Source of the DNA: Candidatus Parcubacteria bacterium
GTDB taxonomy: Bacteria; Patescibacteriota; Patescibacteriia; CAIXNZ01
Direction of reading: 5' to 3'
DNA: 64,000 bases
Assembly (NCBI GenBank): GCA_026395685.1
Contig: JAPLYG010000001.1
Coordinates: 7,862 to 71,861 of the forward strand
Each line of letters begins with the position of its first letter. Positions within the stretch are counted from its first letter, which is position 1. This document shows positions 15,423 through 59,587 of this stretch, piece after piece. The position numbers were made by a program, and so were the translations under genes. The notes below the pieces were generated by a model. That model had not been told where the DNA came from and did not search any database. It saw only the letters and a program-made list of their open reading frames with translations.

Positions 15423-15437
15423 TCTAACTATAAAAAT

Positions 15438-16472
15438 ATGGATGACCGTAAAATACAAGAGATAAGAGAAGGATTACAAAGTTCTCATGTGAATTTTTTA
15501 TTTGGAGCGGGCTTGTCAACACCATATTTGCCATTGCTTGGCGATATTGAGATAAGATTATCAAGAGAAAGGAAATCCGCTGAAAGAATAAAGATAAAGA
15601 AGGAATACTTTGAAAAAGTCATGATCCCCAATTTAGAAATCATAAATAATGATATTACTAGTTCAAAACAGAATGATTTTAATATTACACAAAAAGCATA
15701 TAAAGATTTTTTTGAGCTTATTGGTCACATTTTACTTCACAGAAAAAATACTATTTTAAGTAAACAAGTAAATATCTTTACAACTAATATTGACATTCTA
15801 ATGGAAGTAGCATTAGAGGAACTTAACATGGAATACAATGATGGATTCTCTGGTAGACTAAATTCAGTTTTTAGTTTAAGTAATTTCAAGCGGTCTATTT
15901 TAAAACGAAGCTTGCACTATGAAAATGTATCGGAGGTGCCTATTTTCAATCTGGTAAAAATACACGGTTCCCTTACTTGGAAGAAAATTGAAGACAAGAT
16001 ATTTTTCTCTAAATTAACCCATTTTGATAAATCATTACTAAAAAAGTCTGGGAAAAAATTTGATGACAATTACAAAAAATTAGCAATAGTGAATCCTGAA
16101 AAGAAAAAACTTGAAGAAACCGTAATGGATCTGACTTATTATGAATTACTCAGAATGTATTCTAGTGAATTAGAGAAAGAAAATGTCATTTTATTTATTA
16201 TGGGTTTTTCAATGGAAGATGAACATATAAGAGAAATAACTATTAGGGGTGCTAATTCAAATCCCACATTAAAAATCTATCTTATTAGTCACGAAAAAGA
16301 TACTAATTTAGATCTGGCAAGAAAAATGGAAATCGGAAAATTGAGATATTCAAATATTGAAATAGTAGAACCTGAAGATGGAGAACAAAATAGCAAATTA
16401 AGTCTAACTGTAATTACAAAATTGATTTTCGAAAAAGTGGTTAAGAACATTGCTCATGACAACAAAGATTAA
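15438..16472 (+). CDS. SIR2-family NADase (defence-associated sirtuin) of a SIR2-HerA pair
   Basis: SIR2 signature motifs 'FLFGAGLST', 'FTTNIDILME' (TTNxD) and 'KIHGSL'. Confidence 0.8.
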   Translation: MDDRKIQEIREGLQSSHVNFLFGAGLSTPYLPLLGDIEIRLSRERKSAERIKIKKEYFEKVMIPNLEIINNDITSSKQNDFNITQKAYKDFFELIGHILLHRKNTILSKQVNIFTTNIDILMEVALEELNMEYNDGFSGRLNSVFSLSNFKRSILKRSLHYENVSEVPIFNLVKIHGSLTWKKIEDKIFFSKLTHFDKSLLKKSGKKFDDNYKKLAIVNPEKKKLEETVMDLTYYELLRMYSSELEKENVILFIMGFSMEDEHIREITIRGANSNPTLKIYLISHEKDTNLDLARKMEIGKLRYSNIEIVEPEDGEQNSKLSLTVITKLIFEKVVKNIAHDNKD

Positions 16473-18366
16473 TCCAATTGAAAAAGAATTAGTTAGGGAG
16501 TCAATTTTTATAATTGGACATGTTTTGTCTGTAGAGGGTAGGATTGTCAAAATTAAATTAAATAAAGATAAGAATCATTCCCACATACTGTACGAGGGTA
16601 AAACGGTAAAAAATGTTTCAGTTGGTGGTTATGTAAAAATCATTAAAGGTTTTGTTAGTATTATTGGTAAGGTTGAGGGAGAATATATTACTGAAGAAAA
16701 ATACATCAATAGAGAATATAACAAAGAAGAGATAAAAATAAATAGAATTTTGCAGGTTTCTCTTTTTGGTCATTTTGAAGGTGGTTGTTTTAGACAGGGT
16801 ATTAAAGAAATGCCACTTATTGATAACGAGTGTTATCTTTTAAATAGAGAAGAGTTCAACACCCTTCATCAGTTCTATAAAAATAGTCAGAAGTCGATAG
16901 TCATAGGAAGTTTAACAGAAGAACCTTCGCAAAAGATACGACTAGGTGTCAATAATTTATTTGCTAGTCACATAGGAATATTTGGCAATACAGGAAGTGG
17001 TAAATCAAACACATTAGCCAAAATTTACACTGAATTATTTATAGAATTTGATGATAACGAGGAGTTTAAAGCTAAATCTGATTTCGTGATTATTGATTTT
17101 AATGGTGAATATATAGGTAGGGATATAATTACCAATAATAAAACTGTTTACGAATTATCTACAGGTAAAGAAGGAAGTAAGAAAAAATATCCAATAACTA
17201 GAGAAAATCTTAATAAGGTTGAAGTGTTATCCGTTTTATTAGAAGCTACGGAAAAGACTCAAAAGCCTTTTCTGGATAGGGTTGTAAGAAATGATTACTT
17301 AAATGACGTCGATAAATTTAATAGTAGGGTAATTTCTGATATAGAAGATATTTGCAGAAACATTATTGACAAAAAAGACAAAAATATGCGAGAAGGAGTT
17401 GTGGTTGAGTTATTTGGACGAATTTCAGATTTAGTTTTAGATGAAAGTAAAGATGGGATAACAAATTTAAAAAAAGAAATTGAAAATAATTTGCATTTCT
17501 TTTCAGGTACTGGTGGTACCCCCGAATATTACTGGGCAAATTCCTCAGATTCAAATAATTTTAATAACAAGACACCAATTTATGATAATAAAATAAAAAC
17601 CGTAGTGGATGGTTTAAAATTTAAAAGTGATGAGTTTAGTAAATTAAAACTAAAGATTATACTCAATTATTTTCACGAGACTATTAAGGGATACTCAAAT
17701 CAGGAACACATTGCCCCTTTAATCGGCAGAACTTTTAGAAAATTCGATATGCTTGAAAAGTTAATTGAGATTAATGAAGAAGTAGACTCAAATAACTTAT
17801 CAATTGTTTGTTTGAGAAATGTAAATATTGAAATGAAAAAGATAATTCCTCTTATTGTTTCTAAGCAACTATACGAGAGGAAAAAAGAGATAAATGGGAA
17901 AAAATCATTGCATATCATTGTTGATGAAGCACATAATATTCTTTCAACGATGTCGCAAAGGGAAAGTGAAACATGGAAAGATTATCGCCTAGAAACATTT
18001 GAAGAAATAATTAAAGAAGGTAGAAAATTTGGTGTCTTTTTGACCATCGCAAGCCAAAGGCCATATGATATTTCCTCTACAATCATTTCTCAATTGCACA
18101 ATTATTTCATCCATAGACTAATTAATGATAATGATATTAATGCGGTTGAGAAGGCGGTTTCTTATCTTGATAAGCTATCATTTCAAACTATCCCAATATT
18201 ATCAGTTGGAAGTTGTTTTGTTGCTGGATTAGCTTCGGATATACCTATTAAAGTCGATATTGATCCACTGGAAAAAAACAAAAGACCAAAGAGCGAGACT
18301 GTTGATTTAGAAAATGCGTGGACAAAAATTTTGTCGCCAAATAATCGAAAATCAAGCAAACAATAG
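16450..18366 (+). CDS. HerA/DUF87-family ATPase partner of SIR2
   Basis: Walker A 'GNTGSGKSNTL'. Walker B 'LHIIVDEAHNI'. Size (638 aa) and 23-nt overlap with the SIR2 gene, typical of an operon. Confidence 0.8.
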   Translation: MLMTTKINPIEKELVRESIFIIGHVLSVEGRIVKIKLNKDKNHSHILYEGKTVKNVSVGGYVKIIKGFVSIIGKVEGEYITEEKYINREYNKEEIKINRILQVSLFGHFEGGCFRQGIKEMPLIDNECYLLNREEFNTLHQFYKNSQKSIVIGSLTEEPSQKIRLGVNNLFASHIGIFGNTGSGKSNTLAKIYTELFIEFDDNEEFKAKSDFVIIDFNGEYIGRDIITNNKTVYELSTGKEGSKKKYPITRENLNKVEVLSVLLEATEKTQKPFLDRVVRNDYLNDVDKFNSRVISDIEDICRNIIDKKDKNMREGVVVELFGRISDLVLDESKDGITNLKKEIENNLHFFSGTGGTPEYYWANSSDSNNFNNKTPIYDNKIKTVVDGLKFKSDEFSKLKLKIILNYFHETIKGYSNQEHIAPLIGRTFRKFDMLEKLIEINEEVDSNNLSIVCLRNVNIEMKKIIPLIVSKQLYERKKEINGKKSLHIIVDEAHNILSTMSQRESETWKDYRLETFEEIIKEGRKFGVFLTIASQRPYDISSTIISQLHNYFIHRLINDNDINAVEKAVSYLDKLSFQTIPILSVGSCFVAGLASDIPIKVDIDPLEKNKRPKSETVDLENAWTKILSPNNRKSSKQ

Positions 18367-18436
18367 TTTGTATAAAACACCACTCTCTTAATTAATTCTA
18401 TTAACATTGATAGAATAGATTGTCATTTTAAATAAT

Positions 18437-19906
18437 ATGCCACACCAAATTATAAAATTTTCAGAATATTTTAATCTAAATAAGAGTCAGTACGAACTTG
18501 ATTTTGTTGATGTTCCTATAAATAATGGCGATGTGCCTTTATTTATTGATCCCTATGCAATATCTAAAAGAACTGATTATTGGTCAATTGAGTGTCATAA
18601 TGCAATCGTAGATTTCTTTCAATATTTAATTGATCAAATTAGCCAAGGCAACACTCAACAAGCCAGGAATGCTTTATCTGGTTTAAGGGAGCCAAATCAA
18701 ACCAGATTAGGCATGTCTACTGGAAATAAGCCAAGAGGACGAGGTATCGGGAATGAGCAATCTGAATTTTTATTTTTAGCATTATCAGAAAGCACCGCTG
18801 TAAGAACTGGATTCATAAAAGATCTAGAAGAATGTGAACTTTTAATTGAGGGTATTGGCCGTGATAAAATTTCCGATATAGCCACAAATATAATCAGACA
18901 TAAATTAATTGAGTATACTCAAATACAGTGTGAACTTTGGAATATCACATTAAACTCGGTTCCAAGTGGGATGACATGGAATCAAGATTTAAATGAATGG
19001 GAGAATGAATATGTTAATCTGCCAGTATGTAATTCTAATAGTGTTATTTTAATCCCAAAGGCAATAGCTAGATTTGATATTGAATTTGATTATCAAGAAT
19101 ATTATCAACACTTCGTATTGAATTTTCTTCAATCCGAAGAATTATCTGCAAATTCTTCACTGGTTAGAACTTTAAAAAATGGGACTAAAAAACCACCCTA
19201 CAAAAAAGCTTTAAAGGAAAAATATCCTTTAACCAAGAAATATCTTTATGAATTTTCTAAAGAGCACCCAGATATATTAAGTAATTATAAAACTAGCAAA
19301 GGCTATAATTTAAGAGAATTAAGCGTAGAGGATATTTTATTTTTCGCTTATAAACAAGAGACAAATAGAAGCATTGATTATAATACTTTAAAGAATAAGT
19401 TAAATACCATTCAAACTGGAGACTCAGCCGCTAATCAATATCATGATTATATTATAGGAGCGATGACGGCAATATTTTATCCTTACCTTATCAACCCTAA
19501 AAAAGAGCAGGAAATTCATGATGGAAGGAAAAGAATTGATATAGTATTCCAAAATTCAGCACATGACGGTTTCTTTTTTGAATTACCGAATACTAAATCG
19601 GTTCCGTCCGGGTATATATTTGTCGAGTGTAAGAATTACGCAAGTGATCCCGCCAACCCTGCATTGGATCAATTGTCTGGAAGATTTTCAACTAATAGAG
19701 GTAAATTCGGATTTTTAGTGTGTAGGTCATTTAGCAATAAAGATTTATTTATACAAAGATGCAAAGACACAGCACAAGATGATAGAGGTTTTATTGTCGC
19801 ACTAGACGACGATGACATTGAAAAGTTATTAGAATTTAGAAGTAATAATAATTATGCTGGCATTAATACTTTTTTAGATGATAGATTTAAAGAATTGGTA
19901 ATGTAA
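18437..19906 (+). CDS. Hypothetical protein with C-terminal PD-(D/E)xK nuclease-like core
   Basis: 'RIDIVFQN...GYIFVECKNY' (D...E-x-K) near the C-terminus. The N-terminal 330 aa are unrecognised. Confidence 0.4.
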   Translation: MPHQIIKFSEYFNLNKSQYELDFVDVPINNGDVPLFIDPYAISKRTDYWSIECHNAIVDFFQYLIDQISQGNTQQARNALSGLREPNQTRLGMSTGNKPRGRGIGNEQSEFLFLALSESTAVRTGFIKDLEECELLIEGIGRDKISDIATNIIRHKLIEYTQIQCELWNITLNSVPSGMTWNQDLNEWENEYVNLPVCNSNSVILIPKAIARFDIEFDYQEYYQHFVLNFLQSEELSANSSLVRTLKNGTKKPPYKKALKEKYPLTKKYLYEFSKEHPDILSNYKTSKGYNLRELSVEDILFFAYKQETNRSIDYNTLKNKLNTIQTGDSAANQYHDYIIGAMTAIFYPYLINPKKEQEIHDGRKRIDIVFQNSAHDGFFFELPNTKSVPSGYIFVECKNYASDPANPALDQLSGRFSTNRGKFGFLVCRSFSNKDLFIQRCKDTAQDDRGFIVALDDDDIEKLLEFRSNNNYAGINTFLDDRFKELVM

Positions 19907-19912
19907 TATAAT

Positions 19913-20329
19913 ATGCTTAAAGAATCACAAGTTGAAAATATTTTGAGAGGATACTTAATTAGTAAAGGATGGCGATTAACAAACTTGCCTAAAGGTATTG
20001 GTGAAGGTGGTATTGATATTAAAGGTTATCATCCTATTAAAAGGAAGGTTTTATTGGTAGAGGTTAAAGGTGACGGGAAAGCAAAGAATCAAACACTGCA
20101 TAATGGTTTTTACACTATTTTAGGCCAGATACTTTTTCGCATGGATAAACAAGGTAATGATCAGAAGAAGGCTAGAACCTATGCCTTAGCCATCCCTGCA
20201 AATTGGGAGGATGCGTTTACTAAGAAAATCAAACAAATGCCATACGGCTGGAGTTTATTGCGATTAAAAGTCTTTTTAGTTTCAAATAGAAGCGTTGAAG
20301 AAAAAAATTATAAATATTTTTTAAAATAA
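19913..20329 (+). CDS. Small PD-(D/E)xK-fold protein (YraN/Hjc-like mini-nuclease)
   Basis: 'ENILRGYLISKGWRL...GEGGIDIKGY...LLVEVKGDGKA' resembles the UPF0102/YraN layout. Starts 7 nt after the previous gene. Confidence 0.4.
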   Translation: MLKESQVENILRGYLISKGWRLTNLPKGIGEGGIDIKGYHPIKRKVLLVEVKGDGKAKNQTLHNGFYTILGQILFRMDKQGNDQKKARTYALAIPANWEDAFTKKIKQMPYGWSLLRLKVFLVSNRSVEEKNYKYFLK

Positions 20330-20342
20330 TTAAATATAAATT

Positions 20343-20540
20343 ATGCTCACCTCAAAAATCAAAGTCCTAAACGAAGAAAAAATTGCCAATATAATTTTGG
20401 ATTTAGAACGCGGGAAATTAAAAATTCCAAGATTTCAGCGTCAATTTGTTTGGGAGCGGTCAAAAATTATTAAACTTTTAGATAGCATCTATCAGGAGTT
20501 TCCGATCGGCAGTTTTTTCGGGGGAATGACTTGTGGATAA
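20343..20540 (+). pseudogene. Truncated DUF262 (GmrSD/ParB-like type IV restriction N-domain) fragment
   Basis: 'IPRFQRQFVWERSKIIKLLDSIYQEFPIG' is the DUF262 signature. The ORF stops after 65 aa, whereas intact family members are several hundred aa. Confidence 0.5.
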
Positions 20541-20613
20541 GTATTGTTGTGTTCGGCTTTTGTTCGGGATATAATATTAATAACAAAATATCTCTAAGTA
20601 TTATTCATATTCT

Positions 20614-21564
20614 ATGCCGAAAACGAACTATTGGGATTTAACCAATAGGCCACATACAAAATTAAAACTGGAGATTTATGAAAAATACCTTAAGTCATGG
20701 TGCCAAATTTTTAAAAAACAGGCATGGGCTAAGGATGTTTTTATAGTAGATTGCTTTGCTGGTAAGGGCGATTACCTTGATAATGGCGCAATCGTGGATG
20801 GTTCTCCTCTCATAACCATAAAAACAGTTAAGGAAATTAATGAGGATTTTAAGAATAACAAAGTCAGGAATAAAGATTATTTTAAAATCAAATGTTTTTT
20901 TATTGAAGAAAATTCTGGTTATGCCAATAATTTAACTAAGCTTTTGGAGCCATATAAGAAGGATGTTGAATTTGAAATAATCAATGATGACTTCAATAAA
21001 GTAATCGCTAGGCTGGTAAAAGATATGGCAAATAAGCCGGCGTTATTTTTTATTGATCCCTATGGCATAAAAAGCGTGAATAAATCTAGCATCTTATCAG
21101 TTATTAATAAACCAGGGGCCAAAGATATTTTATTTAACTATATAAACGAAGGAGTCATCAGGATTGCTGGATTAGCCAAGAAAGTAATAACTAGAGACAT
21201 TGACGATATCACAGTCACGGAACTTAAAACAATAAAGCATTTGCAGAATTTTATTGGCGATAAGTTTTTAGAACTTATTGATAAAAATGACATAGAAATA
21301 CTTAAGTATTATGTTGATAATATTTTAAAAAGCAATAATAACGATACTGCCGGGAAAAATAATCTCGATGTAATCGGCTTTGACATGCCTTACCCCAATA
21401 AAAGCGATACGATTTATTATTTATTGTTTGCGTCAAGAAACAAACAGGCGATGAAAATCGTAAGCCAAGTATATGCTAACAGCAAAAAGGAAAACTTGCA
21501 GAAACAAAAAAGCCTTTTTGATTCTAAAGAGCAATTGAGAATACATAAGGATTTTAAGGTCTAA
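20614..21564 (+). CDS. Hypothetical protein, possible TcmP-like partner protein (MTase-like 'IVDCFAGKGDY')
   Basis: N-terminal 'FIVDCFAGKGDYLDNGAIVDGSPL' and 'LFFIDPYG'. Tight pairing with the downstream Cys-motif gene. The assignment is from memory of the family and not verified. Confidence 0.3.
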   Translation: MPKTNYWDLTNRPHTKLKLEIYEKYLKSWCQIFKKQAWAKDVFIVDCFAGKGDYLDNGAIVDGSPLITIKTVKEINEDFKNNKVRNKDYFKIKCFFIEENSGYANNLTKLLEPYKKDVEFEIINDDFNKVIARLVKDMANKPALFFIDPYGIKSVNKSSILSVINKPGAKDILFNYINEGVIRIAGLAKKVITRDIDDITVTELKTIKHLQNFIGDKFLELIDKNDIEILKYYVDNILKSNNNDTAGKNNLDVIGFDMPYPNKSDTIYYLLFASRNKQAMKIVSQVYANSKKENLQKQKSLFDSKEQLRIHKDFKV

Positions 21565-21599
21565 GTATAAATATGATATAATTAAAACATATAAATCCC

Positions 21600-22439
21600 A
21601 TGCAAAAAATAACCAGAAAATCTCTTTTATATAAAAGCGGTGTTGAATACGCTGATTTTTGCATTAATCATGTAGAGGGATGCTCTCATGGCTGTAAGTT
21701 TCCTTGCTATGCCATGATGATGAAAAAACGATGTGGGGTAATTAAGACTTATAGCGACTGGATCCAACCTAAAATAGTAAGCAACGCCCTGGAATTACTT
21801 GATAAGGAAATCCCCAGGTTGAAACATAAGATTAAAGTAGTTCATCTTTGTTTCACAACTGACCCTTTTATGTATAAACAGCCGGAGATTACAGATTTAA
21901 CTTTGAAAATTATTGAGAAGTTAAATGCTAATGGCATCAGATGCACGGTATTGACTAAAGGAATTTATCCTAAAGAATTGGCAGACACTACGAAATATAG
22001 TCCCAGCAATGAATATGCCGTAACTTTGGTTTCTCTGAATAAAAATTTCAAGGAGCAATTTGAGCCTGGCACAGCTCCTTACGAATCAAGAATAAACGCT
22101 TTAAAATATCTGCATGACAGTGGATTAAACACCTGGGTCAGTATGGAGCCTTATCCAACCCCTAATTTAGTCAGGCAAGACCTGGAGAAAATATTGGAGA
22201 AAATAGATTTTGTCGACAAGATAATTTTTGGCAAATTAAATTATAATGTTAAGGTTACCCAATTCCAAGATAATAAAGATTTTTATGATAATTGCGCCAG
22301 TGTTGTTACAGATTTTTGCACTCAAAATAATATAAGCTATCATATTAAATACGGCACGGCAAAAAAAGATAATTTTAAAACAGAGAAAATTTTCAAAGTT
22401 GCGAGCTGTAATTTAGATCCTGTAACTTTTAATGTTTAA
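21600..22439 (+). CDS. COG1533/spore-photoproduct-lyase-like Cys-motif protein (variant 'GCSHGCKFPCYA')
   Basis: 'NHVEGCSHGCKFPCYAMM' resembles the 'GCxHGCxYCYA' radical-SAM-type motif of SplB-like DNA repair lyases, but with CX3CX3C spacing. Confidence 0.4.
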   Translation: MQKITRKSLLYKSGVEYADFCINHVEGCSHGCKFPCYAMMMKKRCGVIKTYSDWIQPKIVSNALELLDKEIPRLKHKIKVVHLCFTTDPFMYKQPEITDLTLKIIEKLNANGIRCTVLTKGIYPKELADTTKYSPSNEYAVTLVSLNKNFKEQFEPGTAPYESRINALKYLHDSGLNTWVSMEPYPTPNLVRQDLEKILEKIDFVDKIIFGKLNYNVKVTQFQDNKDFYDNCASVVTDFCTQNNISYHIKYGTAKKDNFKTEKIFKVASCNLDPVTFNV

Positions 22440-22485
22440 ATATAACTAAAAAAGAGACGATTTAAACGCCTCTTTTTTGTTTTAA

Positions 22486-23946
22486 CTATATTTTTTCTAA
22501 AAACTTTAATATCTCCACCATGGCCATTGTATCCATAAAGCAATAATCCAGCATATCCCTATAAAGTTTATCTTTTTCTTTTTTATCAATATCATGATCA
22601 ATCAAGGTTTTCCAACTATCAGAAGCAGTCCCGCCTTCCTGAATATTTAAATCCTTGTAGGACAATTTGGGAATCAATACGGGCAATACCTTTTTAATAG
22701 ATGCGCTCCCGTGGAAATTCTTATGGACATAATAGCCTTTGCGGAAAATGAGCATTAGATCGTACATTGAATCATTGACTGATTTTAAGAACATAGCATA
22801 TTGCGGAGCCCGTTTTGCCATTTCACTGTTACAGCCCTTTTCAAACATCGCATTCCATGAAATGGCAGTGCCTTTCTTAGATATAAATTTTCTAAGAGCT
22901 TTTAATAAATCTTCAGTCGGATCTTTAAAGTCTTTGGCCAGAAATTCATAATGATTCAGCTTTCCGCCCGGCTTTTCCTGCACATGCAGGGAAAACTGAA
23001 AGACAATGCGCTGATAGGGCTTGTAGCCGTCAAAAAGCGGGATAGCAGGGCTGAATGTCTCGTAATCAAGGAAATAGAGCGGATATTTGAGGTTACTTAG
23101 GTCTTCTTTGATGTTTTCTGGTTCAATATGGACTTTGTTATGCTTAACCACATGTCGGTGCATTAAAGCTCGGTCTCTGGTCAAAAAGTCCTCGGGAACG
23201 TCCTTAATTTCTAAAATATCCTGATCTAGGAGCTCATTTAGCTTTTTCTCGCTTAATCCGCAGGCAATGCTGTAAATTGAGTGGTCTGGCACGTCTTTCC
23301 AGCAGTAATCAATGAATGGGCATTCATAGGGACTATTACATTGCTTTAAGATCCTTATTTGGGGTTCTTTGGGAGATTTGATAAGTTTAAGAGCGGATTC
23401 AATGTTTAGCTTGGTTTCGCTGATCAGATTTCTGACATCAGAAGTAATATCCTCAATCTTTAATAATTTTTTAGGATCAATTTCGCCTTTTCTTACATAG
23501 CTGGTATTGATTACAACCAAATGGGTTTTACCGATTTTATAACCTGCAGATTCAAAACAGACTTTCTGGAAGGACAAGTCAATGATATGGATATCTTTGA
23601 CCTGGGTTGAACTTTTAACTTCGTAAATATCCCACTTGTCTCCGTTCTTAACAAAAATATCAGCCATTGCGTAAAGGCTATTGGCCATGGCAGTGGCTTG
23701 AAAAATAACTTTATTGCCGTCTTTGATCAGTTTGTCAGTATTTTTCTTGGCGGTTTCATAAAGCCCCTCTGCCTTAACTCCCTTAGGAAATAATTTGCGA
23801 GCATAATCTTCAACTTCATAACCTTCGTCAAATATTCTTTGCAATGATTCATCTGTTTCTTCAGGCAACAAATCACGGCGGAATTTATACAGCCAAAGGT
23901 ATTTGTAGCACTGGATATATTTTAGGAATTGGGATTTGGATAGCAT
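22486..23946 (-). CDS. DUF2779-like protein with N-terminal Cas4/RecB-like PD-(D/E)xK nuclease domain
   Basis: 'SKSQFLKYIQCYKYLWL' and 'MADIFVKNGDKWDIYEVKSST' (D...E-x-K), plus a long C-terminal domain. Confidence 0.4.
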   Translation of the reverse strand: MLSKSQFLKYIQCYKYLWLYKFRRDLLPEETDESLQRIFDEGYEVEDYARKLFPKGVKAEGLYETAKKNTDKLIKDGNKVIFQATAMANSLYAMADIFVKNGDKWDIYEVKSSTQVKDIHIIDLSFQKVCFESAGYKIGKTHLVVINTSYVRKGEIDPKKLLKIEDITSDVRNLISETKLNIESALKLIKSPKEPQIRILKQCNSPYECPFIDYCWKDVPDHSIYSIACGLSEKKLNELLDQDILEIKDVPEDFLTRDRALMHRHVVKHNKVHIEPENIKEDLSNLKYPLYFLDYETFSPAIPLFDGYKPYQRIVFQFSLHVQEKPGGKLNHYEFLAKDFKDPTEDLLKALRKFISKKGTAISWNAMFEKGCNSEMAKRAPQYAMFLKSVNDSMYDLMLIFRKGYYVHKNFHGSASIKKVLPVLIPKLSYKDLNIQEGGTASDSWKTLIDHDIDKKEKDKLYRDMLDYCFMDTMAMVEILKFLEKI

Positions 23947-23961
23947 AAGCTTGTTTATATA

Positions 23962-25029
23962 TTAACGCAGTTTCTTCAAAACATCCATAACCCCCGACTT
24001 CTCTAATTCAAGTAGAGAATTGTAAATAAAAGTTATTGCCTTTTTTTCTCCACCCTTAATGAATTCGGGGAATGCCATTTCTTTTAAATATGGCCAATGA
24101 ATATCGTTCGGTTGTTTTACGAAAAATGTCTTATCGATTTTCTGCGGTTTTATATTTTTAAACTTTTCAGCGAATTCTTTTTTCCAGATAGCGATACATT
24201 GATAGTAATAAAGTCCATTCGTATAATTTTTTTCATCTATATATAAAGCGAAGCCTAATTCAATCCGTTTAAACCAACTCCATTCGTTTCTGCCAAAAAA
24301 TAAATAGAACAACATGTTGTCACTGCTGAATTTTGGGGTATTGCGTGTCACTTGCAATTTATGTTTCTTTAAAAATCCGATAATCCTTTTGTCTTTGTAA
24401 ATCTGTTTTAAAAAGGCAATTAGTTTTTTATTAAAGCCCAGGAAATTTGTTTTGGAAAGGGCGATGTCTTTCTTATCAAAACCCTGAAATGGTTGCATAT
24501 CTAATTCTTTCATGAATTTTAAAAAATTAGTAATAAAATATTTATTGGTTTTATTAATCTTATTATTATGAAAATAATCGTCCAAAAGATTATAGACCTC
24601 AAACCATTCAAATTGTCCTAGGAATTTGTCGATATTACTTTTAACTTGTATACTGCCCTGATCTTTCGTTATAAAACAAACAAAACCTTTATTCATTCGT
24701 AGATATTTTTCAACTTGTCCAAAATCATCCTCTGTAGCGTCGTCATAATAACGGTTTTCATGAGCATTGACTTTAATTTCAATAAATATTTTCTTATAGT
24801 TTTTATCAGTAACCTGCAAATCAATTATTGAATTGCCATATCTGACTTGGCTTTCTAAGGTAAAAGGAGCTTTAAATACCTGATCGTTACTGATATATTT
24901 TACAAATTTATTTAGAAGATCTGCATCAAGAGAAAGTATGATTTTTAAGCTTTCAGTAAAAAAATTCTCCGCAGGAGTCATTCCCGGCTGAGGCTTGTAT
25001 CTATATAAGGTAGAAAAAATATTTTCCAT
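23962..25029 (-). CDS. PD-(D/E)xK nuclease-superfamily protein (hypothetical), first gene of a two-gene minus-strand operon
   Basis: 'GNSIIDLQVTDKNYKKIFIEIKVNAHE' core. The likely start is Met 'MENIFSTLYR' at 25029 rather than the extended ORF start at 25080. Confidence 0.35.
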   Translation of the reverse strand: MENIFSTLYRYKPQPGMTPAENFFTESLKIILSLDADLLNKFVKYISNDQVFKAPFTLESQVRYGNSIIDLQVTDKNYKKIFIEIKVNAHENRYYDDATEDDFGQVEKYLRMNKGFVCFITKDQGSIQVKSNIDKFLGQFEWFEVYNLLDDYFHNNKINKTNKYFITNFLKFMKELDMQPFQGFDKKDIALSKTNFLGFNKKLIAFLKQIYKDKRIIGFLKKHKLQVTRNTPKFSSDNMLFYLFFGRNEWSWFKRIELGFALYIDEKNYTNGLYYYQCIAIWKKEFAEKFKNIKPQKIDKTFFVKQPNDIHWPYLKEMAFPEFIKGGEKKAITFIYNSLLELEKSGVMDVLKKLR

Positions 25030-25046
25030 ATAATAGGTGAAATTTT

Positions 25047-25083
25047 TGGGAAAACAAAAAGGGTCCCACGTCGGTGGCACCCT
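25047..25083 (-). terminator. Hairpin plus U-run immediately upstream of the 23962-25029 start (leader attenuator or terminator of an upstream sRNA)
   Basis: Minus strand reads 'GGGTGCCACCGACGTGGGACCC' followed by 'TTTTTGTTTT', about 20 nt before the ATG. Confidence 0.4.
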
Positions 25084-25782
25084 TTCGGGCGCCCAACAAC
25101 CTTTCGGATGTTGACCATTCGCATAGTGCCGATCATGAGACCGTCTTTATGCGAATGGATTTGAGCGACCATGCCCCAAGGAGGAATCCTTGGGGGTTAG
25201 GTCCAAATTGTATGAAATTATTCATATCATACCTTAAAAAATGGTTGCTGTAAAGCGGGGTTACCGACAGTTTATCTACTCGGGTTTCAGCAAAAAGTTA
25301 TCCACAATTTAATTTTTGACTTACAAAATCACAAAATTATAACATATCTGATTTTGCTTAATCTTAGATGAATTTTCATGGTTGACTTACGAGATGTAAT
25401 TATCTGAAAAACACGATTATAAACTTGACGGAACTGCTAGTTAAGCTATAATTAATGTAACAGTTCTTGTGACTAGCTCTTCGAAAACTTAATATCAGCA
25501 ATAAGATATAAGATTTTATAACTAATTAACATTTAAGTTCGGTTTTAAAAAGGAAAAAATCTATAACCCTAATAAAAGGTTTTAGGTTTGAAGTTAAAAT
25601 ATAAGATTTAAAATTAAAATTCTAAAAAAGTTCCAGTCATTTAATATCCCTATAAGATATTAAATTTAATTTTAAACAATCCAGCAATGGGTATATTTTA
25701 ACAACAGACTTAAGGCCTTTTTTTGTTAAAAGCTATCCCCATTGAGGATAGCTTTTTAATTATTTATAATTAATTTTATTTT

Positions 25783-27054
25783 ATGCAAAACTCAGCCAAA
25801 TTAAAAATAGAGTCAATTCCTATTGCTGAACTTAAGGTGGATATTTACAATCCCAGAATCCACACGCCAGAAGCAATAAGCCAGCTAAAAGAGTCAATTA
25901 AAAAGTTCGGCGAAATTTCGCCAATAGTGGCTAATAGTGCTCCCAACAGGAAAAATATTGTAATTTCGGGGCACATGAGAATAAAAGCCTGCTTAGAGTT
26001 AGGGCTTAAGGAAATACCGACAATTTTTGTGAACATCCCCGACATTAATCGAGAAAAAGAATTAAATCTTCGCATGAACCGTACTGGCTCATGGGATTAT
26101 GAACTTCTTAAGAGTTTTGACTTAAATGTCCTTTTGGATGTTGGGTTCGATAACAGTGATTTATCTTTGATATGGGATCAGAACTTGGAAACTGAAGATG
26201 ACAGTTTTGATGTAGAAACGGAATTAAAAGAGATTAAGAAAACAGACATAAAAGTTGGAGATTTATTCCAGATTGGATCTCATAGGATTTTGTGCGGTAA
26301 TTCATTGGATCTTTCAGCAGTAAAAGGGCTTATGGGCGGTAAAAAGACAAGGATGATATATACCGATCCGATCTACAACATCTCTCTGGATTATAACTTG
26401 GGGATTTCTCAGAAACAAAATTATGGCGGACAAACTAATGACAAGAAAACCGATGCTGAATACAAAGAATTTCTGAAAGGAGCTATTTCTAATGGATTGG
26501 CGGTTTCTGAAAAGGATTTACATGTGTTTGTTTACTGTGACCAAAGATATATTGGTTTAATTCAAGATCTTTATCATGAGCTTGGGATAAAGAACCAAAG
26601 GGTCTGCCTTTGGATTAAGAATGGATTTAATGTAACTCCACAAATAGGTTTTAATAAATCATATGAGCCTTGTGTTTATGGAACAATGGGAACGCCTTTT
26701 CTTTCAGACATAAAGAACTTAAGTGAAATTTTAAACAAGGAAATCGGCACAGGAAACAGAACAATTGATGACATCATGGACTTGTTGGATATTTGGCTGG
26801 TTAAACGTTTGCCAGGCCAAGATTACACACACGCCACAGAGAAGCCAACAACTCTCCATGAAAAAGCAATAAAAAGATGTACATCTCCTGGCGATATTAT
26901 TTTAGATCTATTCGCTGGTTCGGGATCAGCCATTATTAGTAGTGAACAACTTAAGCGAGTATGTTACGCCGTCGAGATTGAACCTATCTTCGTACAACTA
27001 ATTATTAACAGGTTTGAAAAATATGCAAACATCAAAGCAAAAAAGCTCAATTAA
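25783..27054 (+). CDS. ParB-N domain fused to beta-class N4/N6 DNA methyltransferase
   Basis: ParB-like 'ISGHMRIKAC'. MTase motif IV 'MIYTDPIYN' precedes motif I 'ILDLFAGSGSAII...YAVEIEP'. Confidence 0.75.
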   Translation: MQNSAKLKIESIPIAELKVDIYNPRIHTPEAISQLKESIKKFGEISPIVANSAPNRKNIVISGHMRIKACLELGLKEIPTIFVNIPDINREKELNLRMNRTGSWDYELLKSFDLNVLLDVGFDNSDLSLIWDQNLETEDDSFDVETELKEIKKTDIKVGDLFQIGSHRILCGNSLDLSAVKGLMGGKKTRMIYTDPIYNISLDYNLGISQKQNYGGQTNDKKTDAEYKEFLKGAISNGLAVSEKDLHVFVYCDQRYIGLIQDLYHELGIKNQRVCLWIKNGFNVTPQIGFNKSYEPCVYGTMGTPFLSDIKNLSEILNKEIGTGNRTIDDIMDLLDIWLVKRLPGQDYTHATEKPTTLHEKAIKRCTSPGDIILDLFAGSGSAIISSEQLKRVCYAVEIEPIFVQLIINRFEKYANIKAKKLN

Positions 27055-27793
27055 ATATGGTGACATTTTTACGCTAGGCGAACATCTTTTATGTTGCGGA
27101 AATTGTACAGATACGGAATTAGTAAAGAGGTTATTGGGCAATAATAAAATTAAATTAATTTTGGCGGATGTGCCGTATGGCGTGAATTTTACCCAATCAA
27201 AAGAAAGTTTATTGAAAAAAGAGACAAAGCATAAAGATATTGTCGGTGATGAAGATCAAAGCGACGAAAAATACAGTTCCTTCACCCGAGAATGGCTAGA
27301 AGCGATTAAACCTTATTTGGAAAGGAAAAATGCCTTCTATATTTTTAATTCAGATAAGATGATTTTTTCACTCAGACAAGGGATTGAGAATGCTGGTTAC
27401 AATTTTGGGCAGCTTCTAATTTGGGTGAAGAGTCAGGCTGTAATCGGACGAAAGGATTATCTTCCCATGCATGAGCTTATTGCATACGGATGGTGTGGTA
27501 CTCATGAATTTATGAAAAGTAAGGCGAAAAGCGTGCTCTTTTATCCTAAACCTCAAAACAACAATCTTCATCCGACAATGAAACCAATCAGTTTGTTAAG
27601 AGATTTGATTTTGAATAGCACAAGGATTGGTGACATTGTTTATGATGGATTCGTTGGGTCTGGGTCAACTATTTTAAGTTGTGAGCAAACTAAGAGAAAA
27701 TGTTTTGCTTTTGAGATCGAACCCGACTATTGCCGAGTTATTCTTGAGAGATTCGAGAAATTAACAGGCATTAAACCTAAAAAACTAACTTAA
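27014..27793 (+). CDS. Beta-class DNA methyltransferase (phage-type orphan MTase)
   Basis: 'LILADVPYG' (DPPY variant) and 'VYDGFVGSGSTIL...FAFEIEP'. Confidence 0.75.
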   Translation: MKNMQTSKQKSSIKYGDIFTLGEHLLCCGNCTDTELVKRLLGNNKIKLILADVPYGVNFTQSKESLLKKETKHKDIVGDEDQSDEKYSSFTREWLEAIKPYLERKNAFYIFNSDKMIFSLRQGIENAGYNFGQLLIWVKSQAVIGRKDYLPMHELIAYGWCGTHEFMKSKAKSVLFYPKPQNNNLHPTMKPISLLRDLILNSTRIGDIVYDGFVGSGSTILSCEQTKRKCFAFEIEPDYCRVILERFEKLTGIKPKKLT

Positions 27794-27797
27794 TACT

Positions 27798-28205
27798 ATG
27801 AAAGATCTAAAAACTAAAGAGTTATTTCTAGACCAGCTTAAGAAGACCCCAATAATTCAGGTCTGTTGTGAAAAAACTGGCATCAGCAGAGCAACACTTT
27901 ATCGCTGGAAAGCAAAGGATAAGGGTTTTGCTGAAAAATTAGATAAAGCCTTAGGCGAAGGCACTGAATTGGTAAATGATTGCGCTGAAAGCATGTTAAT
28001 TTCAGCTATTAAGGATAAAAACATGACGGCCATCACCTACTGGTTAAAAAATAAGTGTCCTGGATATATGCCTAAGCTGGAATTGTCGGGCAAAGTAAAA
28101 GTGGAAAACGAGGCTCTGTCCGAAGAACAGAAGTCTCTAATCAAGAAAGCCCTTGAGCTTTCTGGCTTAAATATTAATGATCCTAAATATGATAAGTACA
28201 AATAA
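27798..28205 (+). CDS. Phage terminase small subunit-like HTH protein
   Basis: 'KTGISRATLYRWKAKDKGFAEK'. Sits directly upstream of and overlapping the terminase large subunit. Confidence 0.5.
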   Translation: MKDLKTKELFLDQLKKTPIIQVCCEKTGISRATLYRWKAKDKGFAEKLDKALGEGTELVNDCAESMLISAIKDKNMTAITYWLKNKCPGYMPKLELSGKVKVENEALSEEQKSLIKKALELSGLNINDPKYDKYK

Positions 28206-29760
28206 TTTTGACCCAGAGCTAATAGCCAAAATAATGGTTGATCAAAAAGTCAGACAGGAAATCGCCTACAATTCTCATGTATTGTTCTTCCATATTTATT
28301 TTAGCCACTATGTCCAATATCAGACTGCGGATTTCCAGCGTAATCTATTTGATTTGACGCATGATGCTGAAAATCCGTTATTGTGCGTGCTCGCTTTTAG
28401 GGGTTCAGGCAAAAGTTCTATTATGTCAGTATCATTTCCGATTTGGGCAGTACTCGGCAAATTACAGAAAAAACACGTGGTGTTGATTGCCCAAACAATG
28501 GATCAAGCCAAACAAATGCTATTTAACATAAAAACCGAGCTTGAAAATAACCAGCTGCTTAAATCGGATCTGGGACCATTTAAGGAAGAAGAAGACTGGC
28601 GTTCATATACATTGGTATTATCCAAATATGGTGCGAGAATTTCGGCGCTGTCAACTGAGCAAAGCAGTAGAGGCATCAGACACAGAGAAAACCGTCCTGA
28701 TTTGATTATTTTAGATGATGTGGAAAATTCTTATTCCGTTAAGACCAAAGAGTCGAGAGACAAATTATATAATTGGTTTAATTCTGAAATTGTGCCTTTA
28801 GGCGATAAGCAAACTCAAACTGTGATAATTGGGAATCTGCTTCATGAAGATTCTTTGATGATGAGAATAAAGGAAAGAATTACCAGCGACAATCTTACCG
28901 GCAAATTTGTAGAAATACCGATTGTTTATAAAGATGGAAAGATTGCCTGGCCGGGAAAGTATCCGACGATGGCTGATATTGAAAATCTAAAAAAAAGAAT
29001 GCCCGATCCCGCCATCTTTGCTTTGGAGTATGAATTAAGAAAAATTGATGATGGAGATAGAATAATTCATCAGGAATGGATTAAAACTTATGCTAATCTT
29101 CCAGATCCCAATGATAAAACACATAGATACTTATTCACCGTCTCAGGAATTGATCCTGCGGCTTCGACTGATAGCGGAGCATGCTTTACGGCAATAATTT
29201 CTGCTCATATCTACCAAATTCGCGAAAGGCTTAAAATTTTTATTTTGCCTAATCCATTAAACAAAAGGCTGACATTCCCTCAGTTGATAGAGCAGATAAA
29301 ATTATTGGATATACGATTAAAAAGGGAGAAACATAAATTATTTATCGAAGATGTTGGCTATCAAAAAGTATTAATTCAGGAATTGTCTTCTCAGTATTTT
29401 GCCGTAGAAGGAATAAAAGTTGGCTCTCTTAATAAGTATGAAAGATTAAAGTTGACCAGCAATGCGGTTTTTGACGGGACTGTTTTGTTTCCTGAAAAAG
29501 GCTGTGAAGCGTTAATAAATCAGATTGTTAATTTCGGCGTAGAAAGATATAAGGATCTGGCAGATGCCTTTTCGCTATTAATTAACCAGCTGATATCCGC
29601 TAATTATAAGCAGAACGAACTTTATGTGACAACAGGAAATTTTACTCATATAAATATCCCCGGTCAAGACCATTTCACTGAACAGTCAAAGGCGGCAAAG
29701 ATAGCTGAATATAAAAGGTTACAGGATAAAATTAACAGAGACGGGTTTCTGTATTTTTAG
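28177..29760 (+). CDS. Phage terminase large subunit (TerL)
   Basis: P-loop 'AFRGSGKSS', 'LIILDDVEN', and a C-terminal RNaseH-like nuclease region with conserved acidic residues. Confidence 0.7.
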   Translation: MILNMISTNNFDPELIAKIMVDQKVRQEIAYNSHVLFFHIYFSHYVQYQTADFQRNLFDLTHDAENPLLCVLAFRGSGKSSIMSVSFPIWAVLGKLQKKHVVLIAQTMDQAKQMLFNIKTELENNQLLKSDLGPFKEEEDWRSYTLVLSKYGARISALSTEQSSRGIRHRENRPDLIILDDVENSYSVKTKESRDKLYNWFNSEIVPLGDKQTQTVIIGNLLHEDSLMMRIKERITSDNLTGKFVEIPIVYKDGKIAWPGKYPTMADIENLKKRMPDPAIFALEYELRKIDDGDRIIHQEWIKTYANLPDPNDKTHRYLFTVSGIDPAASTDSGACFTAIISAHIYQIRERLKIFILPNPLNKRLTFPQLIEQIKLLDIRLKREKHKLFIEDVGYQKVLIQELSSQYFAVEGIKVGSLNKYERLKLTSNAVFDGTVLFPEKGCEALINQIVNFGVERYKDLADAFSLLINQLISANYKQNELYVTTGNFTHINIPGQDHFTEQSKAAKIAEYKRLQDKINRDGFLYF

Positions 29761-29840
29761 TTATCAACAATGCCTCCTGGACTCAGCAAAGCCGTTGCGT
29801 CATCCCTTGTCTTAGGTAATAACTATTAACCTTAAGACCT

Positions 29841-31181
29841 ATGGATCAACCAACGACGCAAATTAAGGGCAATTTGGGGGCTTTAAGCAACAAACAGGCG
29901 GATTTGAAGCCTATACTCAAGTATTGCCTTTACTCAAGAAAATCAACGGAACAAGAGGAACGGCAGGCTCTTTCCATTGATTCGCAAATTAAAGAAATGT
30001 TAAAAGTTGCAGAAAGAGATAATCTGGAAGTAACCGAGATTAGGCGTGAAAGCCATTCTGCCAAAGCTTCGGGAGCCAGGCCGATTTTCAAACAGCTGTT
30101 AGTTGATATTGAGAAAGGACTATTCAATGGAATTTTAACCTGGGCTCCCGACAGGTTAAGTAGAAACGCTGGGGATCTGGGCGAATTGGTCGATCTGATG
30201 GATCATCAAAAACTGATTGAAATCAGAACATTCAGCCAGATATTCACTAATTCACCTAATGAAAAATTTCTACTGATGATCTTGGGCAGTCAGGCCAAAC
30301 TGGAAAACGATAATAGGGGCGTTAATGTCAAAAGAGGATTAAGAGCCAGAGTTGAAATGGGTTTGTGGCCCGGCCAGGCGCCGACTGGTTATCTGACTAA
30401 TAAAAATGTTGATAAGAAAGGTCAAGTTTTAGTAGATCCAGACCGAGCTCCAGTGCTCCGCAAAATGTTTGAAAAAGTAGCTTATGAAAATGTTAGCGGT
30501 CGTAAACTATATGCCTGGCTAAAATTTGATATAGACTTCAAAACTAAATACGGCAAACATTTAACGCTAAGCAATGTATACAGAATTTTAAATAGCCCGT
30601 TTTATTACGGCAGATTCCAATATCCTAAAGAAAGCGGAAACTGGTATCAGGGCAAGCATGAACCATTAATATCGCAAGAACTCTATGAACTGGTACAGCA
30701 AGCGATTACCAGAGGCCAGCATATTAAATCAGAAGCAAAGGAATTCATGTTTGTTAAGCTGATTAAGTGCGGAGCCTGCGGATCAGGAATAACCGCAGAT
30801 GAAAAATTCAAAAAGCTATTGGACGGATCAGTAAGCAGATATGTTTATTACGGATGCACTAAGAGCAAGGATATCCATTGCAAGACAGGTTATATAAGAG
30901 AGGACGAATTATTAAAGCAGATGCTGGAATTGATTGATCGGGTCGATCTTAATCAGCTGGGCATAAAAGAAAAAATAGAAAATGAAATAGACAGGTACTA
31001 TAAATTCAAAACCAGCGTGCTTGGCGAGTCAGACACAAAGAAAAATAAGCAAAAAGATCTGGATATTAAAAATTATGCCAAGTACATCTTAAAGGAAGGC
31101 AGTGTTTATGAAAAAAGAGATTTGTTATCTAACTTAAGAAGCAAGCTTGTACTTAAGGATAAAAAGTTGATGCTGGAATAG
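29841..31181 (+). CDS. Large serine recombinase/integrase
   Basis: Resolvase catalytic region 'YCLYSRKSTEQEERQALSIDSQ'. Recombinase domain, then zinc ribbon 'CGACGSG...YYGC' and a coiled-coil tail. Confidence 0.8.
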   Translation: MDQPTTQIKGNLGALSNKQADLKPILKYCLYSRKSTEQEERQALSIDSQIKEMLKVAERDNLEVTEIRRESHSAKASGARPIFKQLLVDIEKGLFNGILTWAPDRLSRNAGDLGELVDLMDHQKLIEIRTFSQIFTNSPNEKFLLMILGSQAKLENDNRGVNVKRGLRARVEMGLWPGQAPTGYLTNKNVDKKGQVLVDPDRAPVLRKMFEKVAYENVSGRKLYAWLKFDIDFKTKYGKHLTLSNVYRILNSPFYYGRFQYPKESGNWYQGKHEPLISQELYELVQQAITRGQHIKSEAKEFMFVKLIKCGACGSGITADEKFKKLLDGSVSRYVYYGCTKSKDIHCKTGYIREDELLKQMLELIDRVDLNQLGIKEKIENEIDRYYKFKTSVLGESDTKKNKQKDLDIKNYAKYILKEGSVYEKRDLLSNLRSKLVLKDKKLMLE

Positions 31182-31277: not shown

Positions 31278-31352
31278 TGGTACCGCCTAGGGGAATCGAA
31301 CCCCTGTTACCAGGATGAAAACCTGGTGTCCTAACCACTAGACGAAGGCGGC
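31278..31352 (-). tRNA. tRNA-Glu(UUC), CCA encoded
   Basis: Minus strand reads 'GCCGCCTTCGTCTAGTGGTTAGGACACCAGGTTTTCATCCTGGTAACAGGGGTTCGATTCCCCTAGGCGGTACCA'. Cloverleaf with anticodon loop 'TTTTCAT'. Confidence 0.85.
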
Positions 31353-31356
31353 GTAA

Positions 31357-31611
31357 TTATTTAAGATTAAAACCTAATTTGTTAAGTAACTCTTTACGAA
31401 TTTGATAATTTTTCTTTAATATAAGTTCTATCTTTCTCGCTTCAGTTTTAGTATTATATTCTTCTATATATATTAATTCAAAGGGTATTCTACATTTAGT
31501 TGATTTTGTTTTGCCATTATTATGTTCTTTTAGCCTATTTGTTGGGTTATCACTTATTCCAATATAATAACCTTTATCATTTAAGCTTTGTAAAATATAT
31601 AAATAGTACAT
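31357..31611 (-). CDS. GIY-YIG nuclease-family small protein (YhbQ/UPF0213-like)
   Basis: 'YYLYILQSLNDKGYYIGISDNPTNRLKEHN' (GIY-YIG motif, Arg and Glu) and '...TKTEARKIELILKK'. The ORF-track N-terminus 'MVRTPGF...' is a read-through of the tRNA fragment, so the start is set at the internal Met. Confidence 0.7.
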   Translation of the reverse strand: MYYLYILQSLNDKGYYIGISDNPTNRLKEHNNGKTKSTKCRIPFELIYIEEYNTKTEARKIELILKKNYQIRKELLNKLGFNLK

Positions 31612-31620
31612 ATTAATCAA

Positions 31621-31694
31621 GGCAGGATGTCCGCCGGAGGCGGATCCGCCTTTGGCGGAAAAACCTGGTGTCCTAACCACTAGACGAAGGCGGC
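31621..31694 (-). repeat. Duplicated 5' half of tRNA-Glu (acceptor, D-arm and anticodon 5' stem) fused to GGATCCGCC palindromic hairpins
   Basis: Minus strand reads 'GCCGCCTTCGTCTAGTGGTTAGGACACCAGGTTTT' then 'TCCGCCAAAGGCGGATCCGCCTCCGGCGGA'. Identical to tRNA-Glu positions 1-35, diverging inside the anticodon loop. Confidence 0.6.
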
Positions 31695-59528: not shown

Positions 59529-59587
59529 CGTGTGTCCCCGCTAGGAATCTCCCGCGAAGCAGGATCCGCCTCTGGCGGAGAACCTTG
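59529..59587 (-). repeat. GGATCCGCC-hairpin element plus a duplicated 3' end of tRNA-Arg
   Basis: Minus strand immediately 3' of tRNA-Arg reads 'TCCGCCAGAGGCGGATCC...', then 'TTCCTAGCGGGGACAC', a repeat of the tRNA T-stem and acceptor 3' strand. Confidence 0.55.

Follow-up and report, generated by a model that had tools for sequence, protein, structure and literature searches.

A LOOT-family RNA with a predicted pseudoknot and U-tract tail ahead of a nuclease gene pair in a Parcubacteria island

Within a 64,000-nt stretch of a Candidatus Parcubacteria chromosome (contig JAPLYG010000001.1, positions 7,862 to 71,861; hereafter the window), two predicted nuclease genes on the minus strand are preceded by a compact, GC-rich RNA. 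This RNA is a new copy of the catalogued LOOT family (Rfam RF03000), about 150 nt long. From its structure, its position and the company it keeps in other genomes, we consider it probable that LOOT is a generic attenuating leader, or a small RNA (sRNA) with read-through, whose built-in predicted terminator gates the cargo of mobile islands. It does not act as a sensor geared to nuclease function; the nuclease pair is one of many interchangeable cargoes behind LOOT in integrase-bearing islands.

The LOOT RNA and its pseudoknotted tail

A cmscan search matched RF03000 at 25203-25076 of the minus strand with 80.9 bits, against a gathering score of 46.4 (E = 1.2e-13), and the match is full-length, spanning model positions 1-121 of 121. 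An earlier sequence-only reading had proposed a GC-rich, hairpin-dense leader on this strand, and both the Rfam scan and folding bear it out. The element has a G+C content of 0.54-0.55 in surroundings of about 0.30-0.33, and the 276-nt stretch 25300-25025 folds at -98.4 kcal/mol compared with -66.8 +/- 5.0 kcal/mol for shuffled sequences (z = -6.33); since none of 200 shuffles was as stable, the structured element is real and not due to chance. Its size was overestimated: the structured RNA covers about 150 nt (25203-25053) rather than some 200 nt, and R1, a covariance model that we built with the tail included, matches exactly this interval with 86.6 bits. Two open reading frames (ORFs) that lie over LOOT, at 24978-25172 (-) and 25074-25253 (+), were discounted, being side effects of the GC-rich RNA.

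LOOT was first catalogued in the survey of Weinberg et al. 2017 (PMC5737381) and is treated as a metagenome-based RNA in the Rfam 14 paper (PMC7779021). The window copy shares with the described motif its helices (Table 1), its invariant CCUAA...GCAUGG loop and its GAAA loops. Across 116 sequences, the window among them, the internal loop of P1 is invariant as CCUAA(A/C)C...GCAUGG. The classical 11-nt GAAA-tetraloop receptor has the sequence CCUAAG/UAUGG; the P1 loop resembles a receptor of this kind, and by analogy it may dock with the GAAA loop of P3. A hairpin with the same receptor-like CCUAAACCC...GGGCAUGG as LOOT P1 is also present in an intron of four IMG/VR contigs (L028, L059, L074 and L085), and group I introns form clusters on viral contigs, with four in L028, four in L085 and two in L059. 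A loose search pattern, CCTAANCC..GGCATGG, returned mainly chance matches when applied to viral contigs, along with some group I introns carrying the receptor-like motif; being unspecific, it was replaced by a pattern of 21-22 bases.

The RF03000 model ends before the 3' tail, which forms a pseudoknot and leads into a U-tract. The eight loci compared first were the window and seven from viral contigs; in each, the 20-25 nt past the model end complement the P2 apical loop, and a U-rich run comes next. The pairing of tail and loop was predicted unprompted by RNAalifold on a structure-blind MAFFT alignment. Covariation was assessed on an alignment of 116 distinct sequences that was made blind to structure: all 14 pairs of the pseudoknot show changes on both sides and 90.7% of their cells are paired. 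Columns 85/182, for instance, hold GC in 45 sequences, CG in 43, AU in 12 and UG in 11, and columns 83/184 hold CG in 56 and UA in 45. The whole tested structure is 85.7% paired, compared with 66% for shuffled sequences and 37-51% after sliding the partners against each other. Two U.G wobbles within the pseudoknot are themselves conserved, in 84/116 and 85/116 sequences. In the window the AAGACGGUCUCAUGAUCGG:CCGACGUGGGACCCUUUUU duplex comprises about 19 bp, interrupted by a mismatch and a single bulge, has a predicted energy of -21.1 kcal/mol (family median -25 kcal/mol) and is continuous with the U-tract UUUUUGUUUU.

The P2 loop can also pair within itself. The Rfam consensus includes an inner hairpin of 3-4 bp, which is weak (median -4.3 kcal/mol) and displays some covariation (columns 83/96: CG in 37 sequences, UA in 36). 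As it shares a strand with the pseudoknot, the two cannot coexist. Rivas 2020 listed 28 "cross-covariations" in LOOT, which are probably explained by this mutual exclusivity.

The U-tract lies about 20 nt upstream of the ATG of gene 1, as the sequence-only reading had it, but the stem proposed there does not hold for the family. A local hairpin, GGGUGCCAC-CGAC-GUGGGACCC, overlaps P4 and the pseudoknot; inspected by eye, the tails of other loci did not display it, and it looks peculiar to the window sequence. The pairing that is conserved ahead of the U-run is the long-range pseudoknot.

Leader position and cargo across LOOT loci

The specific pattern, run against a species-representative genome collection, yielded at least 120 loci. 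Among the matches listed, nearly all hosts are Patescibacteria, and they include Saccharibacteria, Parcubacteria/Paceibacterota, Microgenomates and Nomura-, Falkow- and Gottesmanbacteria. In 90 of 103 loci the feature that follows LOOT most closely is an ORF on the same strand, and 75 of these ORFs start no more than 60 nt from the U-run. Upstream, the nearest ORF is divergent in 67/96 loci, at a median gap of 210 nt, and -10-like hexamers cluster 5-30 nt upstream of LOOT across 113 loci. The downstream and upstream ORF orientations and the -10-like boxes together indicate that LOOT normally heads a transcription unit. Directly ahead of LOOT, within 25 nt of P1, the motif ACAACUGAAUA / ACAAUU shows enrichment, in about 20-27 of 113 loci (L135 and L148 are examples). 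In several loci a further small hairpin stands between P1 and the -10-like box and may be a 5' extension of the LOOT RNA.

What follows LOOT differs from locus to locus. The 94 immediate downstream ORFs match 47 Pfam families, none with more than four members. Among them are DNA methylases (N6_N4, Eco57I, MmeI), Ltp lipoprotein, a superinfection-immunity protein, DUF2726, NOV_C and zinc-ribbon membrane proteins, a mixture in keeping with prophage cargo genes (morons) together with defence genes.

This diversity bears on the idea, raised by the sequence-only reading, of a riboswitch or attenuator dedicated to the nuclease operon and responding to a metabolite. Position speaks for it, as the RNA is a leader whose U-tract lies about 20 nt before the ATG. 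The same reading had taken a leader lacking upstream of homologous operons as evidence against such a regulator, and this is what we found: none of five loci with a gene 1 homologue carries LOOT, by either Rfam or model R1, and three of the five (representing two distinct contexts) have an adjacent DUF2779 gene. Conversely, within 8 kb no other LOOT has a gene 1 homologue, and DUF2779 is present at just 2 of 126 loci. The closest LOOT among the matches listed, in a Ca. Falkowbacteria genome (L158), is nearly identical to that of the window and accompanied by a ParB-methylase 71% identical to the one here; its downstream gene encodes a zinc-ribbon/Glucodextran_B surface protein in place of the nucleases. 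Contradicted by the LOOT-free homologue loci and the divergent cargo, a dedicated regulator of the nuclease operon was rejected and is hardly credible.

What recurs around LOOT is the machinery of mobile elements. The commonest neighbour is a serine-recombinase cluster, present at 52/127 loci and in 45 of these located upstream on the opposite strand. A small terminase is found near 18/127 loci, a ParB-methylase near 18/127 and a large terminase near 10/127; homologues of the genes that diverge from LOOT in the window thus flank it at other loci too. In a reverse search, 8 of 37 viral loci encoding integrases 45-63% identical carry LOOT, which in seven of the eight lies 0.2-3.6 kb upstream on the opposite strand; the window has the same arrangement at a distance of 4.6 kb. 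Also found around LOOT are XRE-type repressor-like genes, an OLD-family nuclease, an AbiEii toxin and large proteins that, read from sequence alone, are putative STAND NTPases. Two small elements from IMG/VR (L123 and L124) comprise a methylase, a small terminase, LOOT and a serine integrase; a large-terminase homologue was not found within their sequenced flanks, and the layout is reminiscent of phage satellites.

Could LOOT then act at the DNA level as part of the integrase system, for instance as an attachment site, or else serve the large serine recombinase as an RNA cofactor? In many loci it lies 56-250 nt from the integrase gene, and in some, such as L241, the tail and the segment past the U-run form an inverted repeat, CGCTGGCGG-N15-CCGCCAGCG. 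This repeat is weakly enriched, however, in 24/107 loci versus 9 and 6 in controls, and the conservation is of the RNA type, with covariation across five helices that tolerates G.U pairs. The LOOT of the window is separated from the integrase by 4.6 kb containing methylase and terminase genes, and lies about 6 kb inside the island, away from its junctions. The window holds no second copy of the tail, and no repeat of at least 12 nt that made sense was found linking the island ends; together with the weak inverted repeat, this leads us to rate the attachment-site idea low, and a role as an integrase element as a whole is very improbable.

How LOOT might act

What does this anatomy imply for gene expression? 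In the reading that we favour, transcription would start upstream of P1, at a distance of a few to about 25 nt, and LOOT would fold co-transcriptionally. The tail would close the pseudoknot before the U-tract, so that most polymerases would stop there and a stable small RNA would be released. The fraction that reads through would constitute the cargo mRNA, here for the two nucleases. Because the roughly 20 nt from U-tract to ATG leave no room for another promoter, cargo would be expressed by read-through. Of the functions suggested by the sequence-only reading, an attenuator or co-transcribed sRNA is still the best description, while a riboswitch tied to the operon is not, the RNA being a catalogued LOOT with diverse genes downstream.

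The most direct argument for action in cis comes from a short repeat at the start codon. In 21 of 107 loci a segment of 8-12 nt, termed P2*, lies 13-27 nt past the U-run. It perfectly complements the P2 3' strand, whose 5' partner it duplicates, often together with the A-rich linker. P2* ends 0-7 nt upstream of the ATG in 20 of these 21 loci, and each control yields 1/107. The sequence of P2 varies by locus, and P2* always matches the P2 of its own locus. In most P2* loci the pairing of the P2 3' strand with P2* is predicted at -19 to -24 kcal/mol versus -18 to -23 kcal/mol for P2 itself, and in several, read by eye, P2* occupies the loop of a small hairpin with the AUG within its stem. P2* is absent from the window and from loci L158, L161 and L215; in the window the best downstream complement to the P2 3' strand is 4 nt. 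The possibility that P2* substitutes for a Shine-Dalgarno (SD) sequence was considered and set aside, the contrast in SD-like 4-mers (1/15 P2* loci versus 22/79 loci without P2*) being too weak to conclude. At one locus, L222, a 27-nt exact repeat located 91 nt past the LOOT U-run covers the 3' side of P1, the linker and the P2 5' strand, a partial second 5' portion after a complete LOOT.

A stand-alone sRNA, with its own promoter and efficient termination, acting in trans, for example in lysogeny control or on a protein partner, and having the nucleases as mere neighbours, would share much of this anatomy: a promoter-like site of its own, a U-tract and a compact, stable fold. Rfam types LOOT as sRNA, the cargo is unrelated between loci, and the surroundings, with integrase and XRE repressor-like genes, are of the lysogeny type. 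Against a trans role stand the 87% of loci in which LOOT is co-oriented with an ORF, usually no more than 60 nt away, which leaves no space for a separate promoter, and P2*, whose placement ties the RNA to the downstream translation start. We regard it as a possible but somewhat unlikely explanation.

Alternatively, LOOT may be a regulated switch, riboswitch-like or protein-responsive, in which the inner hairpin competes with the pseudoknot and terminator and a signal, for instance a ligand, induction or a protein of phage or host, sets the ratio of the two and hence cargo expression. Both pairings covary and share a strand; the conserved wobbles, the invariant internal loop and tetraloop, the cross-covariations of Rivas 2020 and P2-3':P2* pairings equal to or slightly above P2 in stability would all suit such a device. 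Against it, the inner hairpin is far weaker than the pseudoknot (compare the family medians given above), and its covariation may follow simply from the strand it shares with the latter. Downstream gene functions are incoherent and indicate no ligand, and P2* is found in about 20% of loci only and not in the window. A signal-responsive switch is thus unlikely.

Several points also weigh against the attenuating-leader reading. Its terminator would be unconventional: the U-tract does follow a -21 kcal/mol helix, but this helix is a pseudoknot closed over about 60 nt, some of the U's lie within it, and a simple terminator scan calls nothing there. The Rfam type is "Gene; sRNA", and a function in trans with incidental read-through fits the same anatomy. 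P2*, which argues most directly for cis action, is missing from the window itself. An integrase is found upstream in only about half of the loci with enough flank (31/62 with at least 4 kb). The loci were sampled by one sequence pattern, so that divergent LOOTs are under-represented, and since bacteria of the candidate phyla radiation (CPR) have compact genomes, short spacing to the next gene is less telling. Weighing these, we still take a generic attenuating leader, or an sRNA with read-through, as the probable function. A more specific proposal, which we put forward tentatively, is that LOOT is a cis-acting switch of CPR integrase-bearing prophages and islands that gates defence or superinfection-exclusion cargo, in which a receptor-braced fold would determine whether the tail forms the terminating pseudoknot, P2* would couple translation to this fold in a fifth of loci, and the trigger might be phage infection, induction, a protein or a small molecule.

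Known RNAs offer partial parallels. The immunity RNAs C4 of P1/P7 and CI of P4 are small structured RNAs heading a prophage or satellite operon. In the C4 layout, a1b1 - c4 - a2b2, stretches from within the RNA recur downstream, where they cover the ribosome-binding region of the gene that follows; c4 was reportedly the subject of Citron and Schuster in 1990. The P2* copy at the ATG in about 20% of LOOT loci is a feature of this kind. Unlike in C4/CI, the complementary strand of LOOT is buried in helix P2, and P2* is not in the window. No Rfam match to C4 or CI RNAs was found in the window, and they have no sequence or Rfam relationship to LOOT. Among phage cis-acting leader RNAs, the put sites of HK022 and the EAR element of Bacillus target the polymerase that is transcribing them. 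LOOT, too, is a structured RNA right behind a predicted promoter, in a mobile element and ahead of variable genes and a predicted terminator, but there is no homology and LOOT itself includes the terminator-like element. In the preQ1 and SAM-II riboswitches a 3' tail pairs into a hairpin loop and sets the expression outcome. The LOOT 3' tail pairs likewise, although its pseudoknot is much longer (14-19 bp), its downstream genes have no common function and no ligand is indicated.

The nuclease pair, its island and the significance of LOOT

The sequence-only reading had assigned both genes to nuclease superfamilies, which our analysis supports, and had described them as overlapping, which they are not: 15 nt separate them (23962 to 23946). 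Gene 1 is 100% identical to NTZ49_00140 of Candidatus Parcubacteria at NCBI. Only 25 homologues were retrieved among 5.8 billion proteins, and those with a named source all come from Parcubacteria or Patescibacteria; as far as these sequences tell, gene 1 is a rare, CPR-only protein. In an alignment of 23 homologues the residues D71, E85, K87, Q106 and Y110 are invariant, giving a D..ExK..QxxxY pattern with a RecB-type Q106xxxY110. The AlphaFold model has a predicted local distance difference test (pLDDT) score of 86.9, and its top Foldseek matches, SfsA, AF1548, NucS/EndoMS, RecU and Cas4, are weak (E = 6.5e-3 to 0.1, low TM-scores); the Pfam SfsA model scores 17.0 bits, under its cut-off of 22.8. 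The N-terminal domain would thus be PD-(D/E)xK-like, and gene 1 a predicted nuclease; its C-terminal half is unassigned. The same metagenome-assembled genome encodes a second copy, P0003 (NCBI NTZ49_03870), 66% identical and on another contig (107 kb).

Gene 2 matches PF11074 (DUF2779) with 142.1 bits (gathering score 23.3; 1.5e-41) and PF01930 (Cas4) with 25.8 bits (gathering score 22.7; 1.3e-5), and it has four cysteines (C13 and CNSPYECPFIDYC). A sequence search of the PDB gave no match for either protein. DUF2779 has been placed, with DUF83, in the 3'-5' exonuclease clade of RNase H-like proteins (PMC3985635). The DUF2779/Cas4 fusion family is widespread, and a member, uncharacterised, is quasi-essential in the minimal Mycoplasma JCVI-syn3.0 (PMC13621843). 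Gene 2 shares with this protein, MMSYN1_0389 (PMC13621843; PMC3985635), the architecture of a Cas4-like N-terminal region joined to DUF2779; unlike it, gene 2 is paired with a CPR-only predicted nuclease inside a mobile island. The gene 1 and DUF2779 pair recurs, in either order, in 4/7 distinct contexts. Some of the contexts are defence islands, others lie beside RuvA, FtsK or RecA; with such neighbours, the pair may act in defence or in DNA repair. With PADLOC, gene 1 has no match and gene 2 only generic Cas4 matches, and no described system covers the pair. The proposal of a defence module stands insofar as these are nuclease-superfamily genes in a defence-rich island, but a defence role is unproven because the DUF2779/Cas4 fusion is widespread and quasi-essential in a minimal Mycoplasma. 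Elsewhere, a Patescibacteria contig (L254, 7206-7348) carries a SAM riboswitch (RF00162, 61.3 bits) upstream of an AAA_14/DUF4143 ATPase gene, which is an unusual gene for this riboswitch.

The window represents a stretch of Parcubacteria chromosome, with a histidine kinase and response regulator at 9.9-12.3 kb and, beyond 32 kb, host genes for TsaD, a type II/IV secretion ATPase (T2SSE), FtsH, PurL and PEPCK. Between them the island spans about 12.5-31.3 kb (some 19 kb), ending at a tRNA-Glu. LOOT is the head of its leftward unit, and the methylases, terminases and integrase make up the divergent rightward unit (Table 1). To the left of the nuclease pair, 12519-22439 (+) is a dense defence island with a type IIG restriction-modification-like methylase, SIR2 and HerA (HerA 5.9e-177), PDC-M36A, TcmP (PDC-M30A) with a radical-SAM partner, and a GmrSD_N fragment of 65 aa at 20343-20540 that is probably a pseudogene. 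A blastn search of deposited phage genomes with 22400-25800 gave zero matches.

Table 1. Coordinates of the LOOT RNA, its parts and the surrounding features in the window
Feature	Position	Strand	Details and basis
LOOT core according to RF03000 (P1, P2 with apical loop, P3, P4)	25076..25203	-	cmscan
P1 hairpin with invariant internal loop CCUAAC...GCAUGG	25167..25203	-	alignment of 116 sequences; helix covaries
P2, 11-bp helix CCAUUCGCAUA / UAUGCGAAUGG around the apical loop	25115..25158	-	Rfam alignment; duplex -17.2 kcal/mol
P3 hairpin with conserved GAAA tetraloop	25094..25113	-	97% of cells paired; loop G/A/A/A invariant or nearly so
P4 hairpin with GAAA loop	25076..25093	-	Rfam alignment and covariation test
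Pseudoknot 5' strand AAGACGGUCUCAUGAUCGG, in P2 apical loop	25129..25147	-	RNAalifold; covariation
Pseudoknot 3' strand CCGACGUGGGACCCUUUUU (25074-25056) and U-tract UUUUUGUUUU (25060-25051)	25051..25074	-	outside the Rfam model
Promoter-like TTTACA-17-TATGAT	25226..25254	-	consensus scan, 10/12 matches; such sites not enriched over shuffles here
Second -10-like box TACAAT	25207..25212	-	3 nt ahead of the first LOOT base; read from sequence
Gene 1 ("nucA")	23962..25029	-	355 aa; ATG 25029-25027, stop 23964-23962
Gene 2	22486..23946	-	486 aa; Cas4-like PD-(D/E)xK N-terminal region and DUF2779
Terminator-like hairpin and T-run at the end of the two-gene unit	22448..22478	-	consensus terminator scan
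Divergent unit: ParB-N6/N4 methylase, second methylase, small terminase, large terminase, large serine integrase	25783..31181	+	Pfam, PHROGs
Large serine integrase	29841-31181	+	NCBIfam CcrB/XisF-like
tRNA-Glu, right-hand island edge	31278..31352	-	ARAGORN, Rfam

Other features of the region deserve mention. Between LOOT and the divergent ParB-methylase gene lies a 580-nt AT-rich non-coding gap (25204-25782), with several promoter-like sites and an 11-bp hairpin (25728-25756) right before the methylase start. At the island edge, a GIY-YIG ORF (31357-31680, -; Pfam 8.9e-17) adjoins the tRNA-Glu, and an exact 35-nt copy of the tRNA-Glu 5' half, ending within the anticodon loop, is found at 31660-31694; the arrangement looks like the scar of a homing-endonuclease or intron-type insertion. 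Beside the tRNA fragment, at 31630-31647, is an 18-nt GC-rich palindrome, TCCGCCGGAGGCGGATCC, which occurs again, inverted, at 59698-59715, about 40 nt from a tRNA-Arg (59587-59659), and may be a small tRNA-associated repeat.

What do these observations add to the understanding of LOOT? It has been an orphan RNA motif since 2017: we found no functional study in the literature, where mentions are limited to the Rfam 14 paper and Rivas 2020, nor did we find its function, host or context described. The pseudoknot and U-tract, the link to Patescibacteria serine integrases and the leader position are not in the Rfam model, and we found none of them in the literature, of which the 2017 supplement was not covered. 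About 125 LOOT loci now place the family in the Patescibacteria (CPR), ultra-small bacteria that make up a large and poorly understood share of bacterial diversity. New at the level of the family are its genomic address, at the head of a cargo slot beside large serine integrases, the long covarying pseudoknot fused to a U-tract, and the receptor-like loop. Separately, the gene 1/DUF2779 pair offers a small clue to how DNA ends are processed in reduced genomes. The family-level hypotheses are open to mutational tests. Should LOOT indeed gate cargo, organisms whose genetics is just beginning would gain a portable regulatory part, and the RNA would provide a handle for finding defence and superinfection-exclusion genes in the mobile elements of the CPR.

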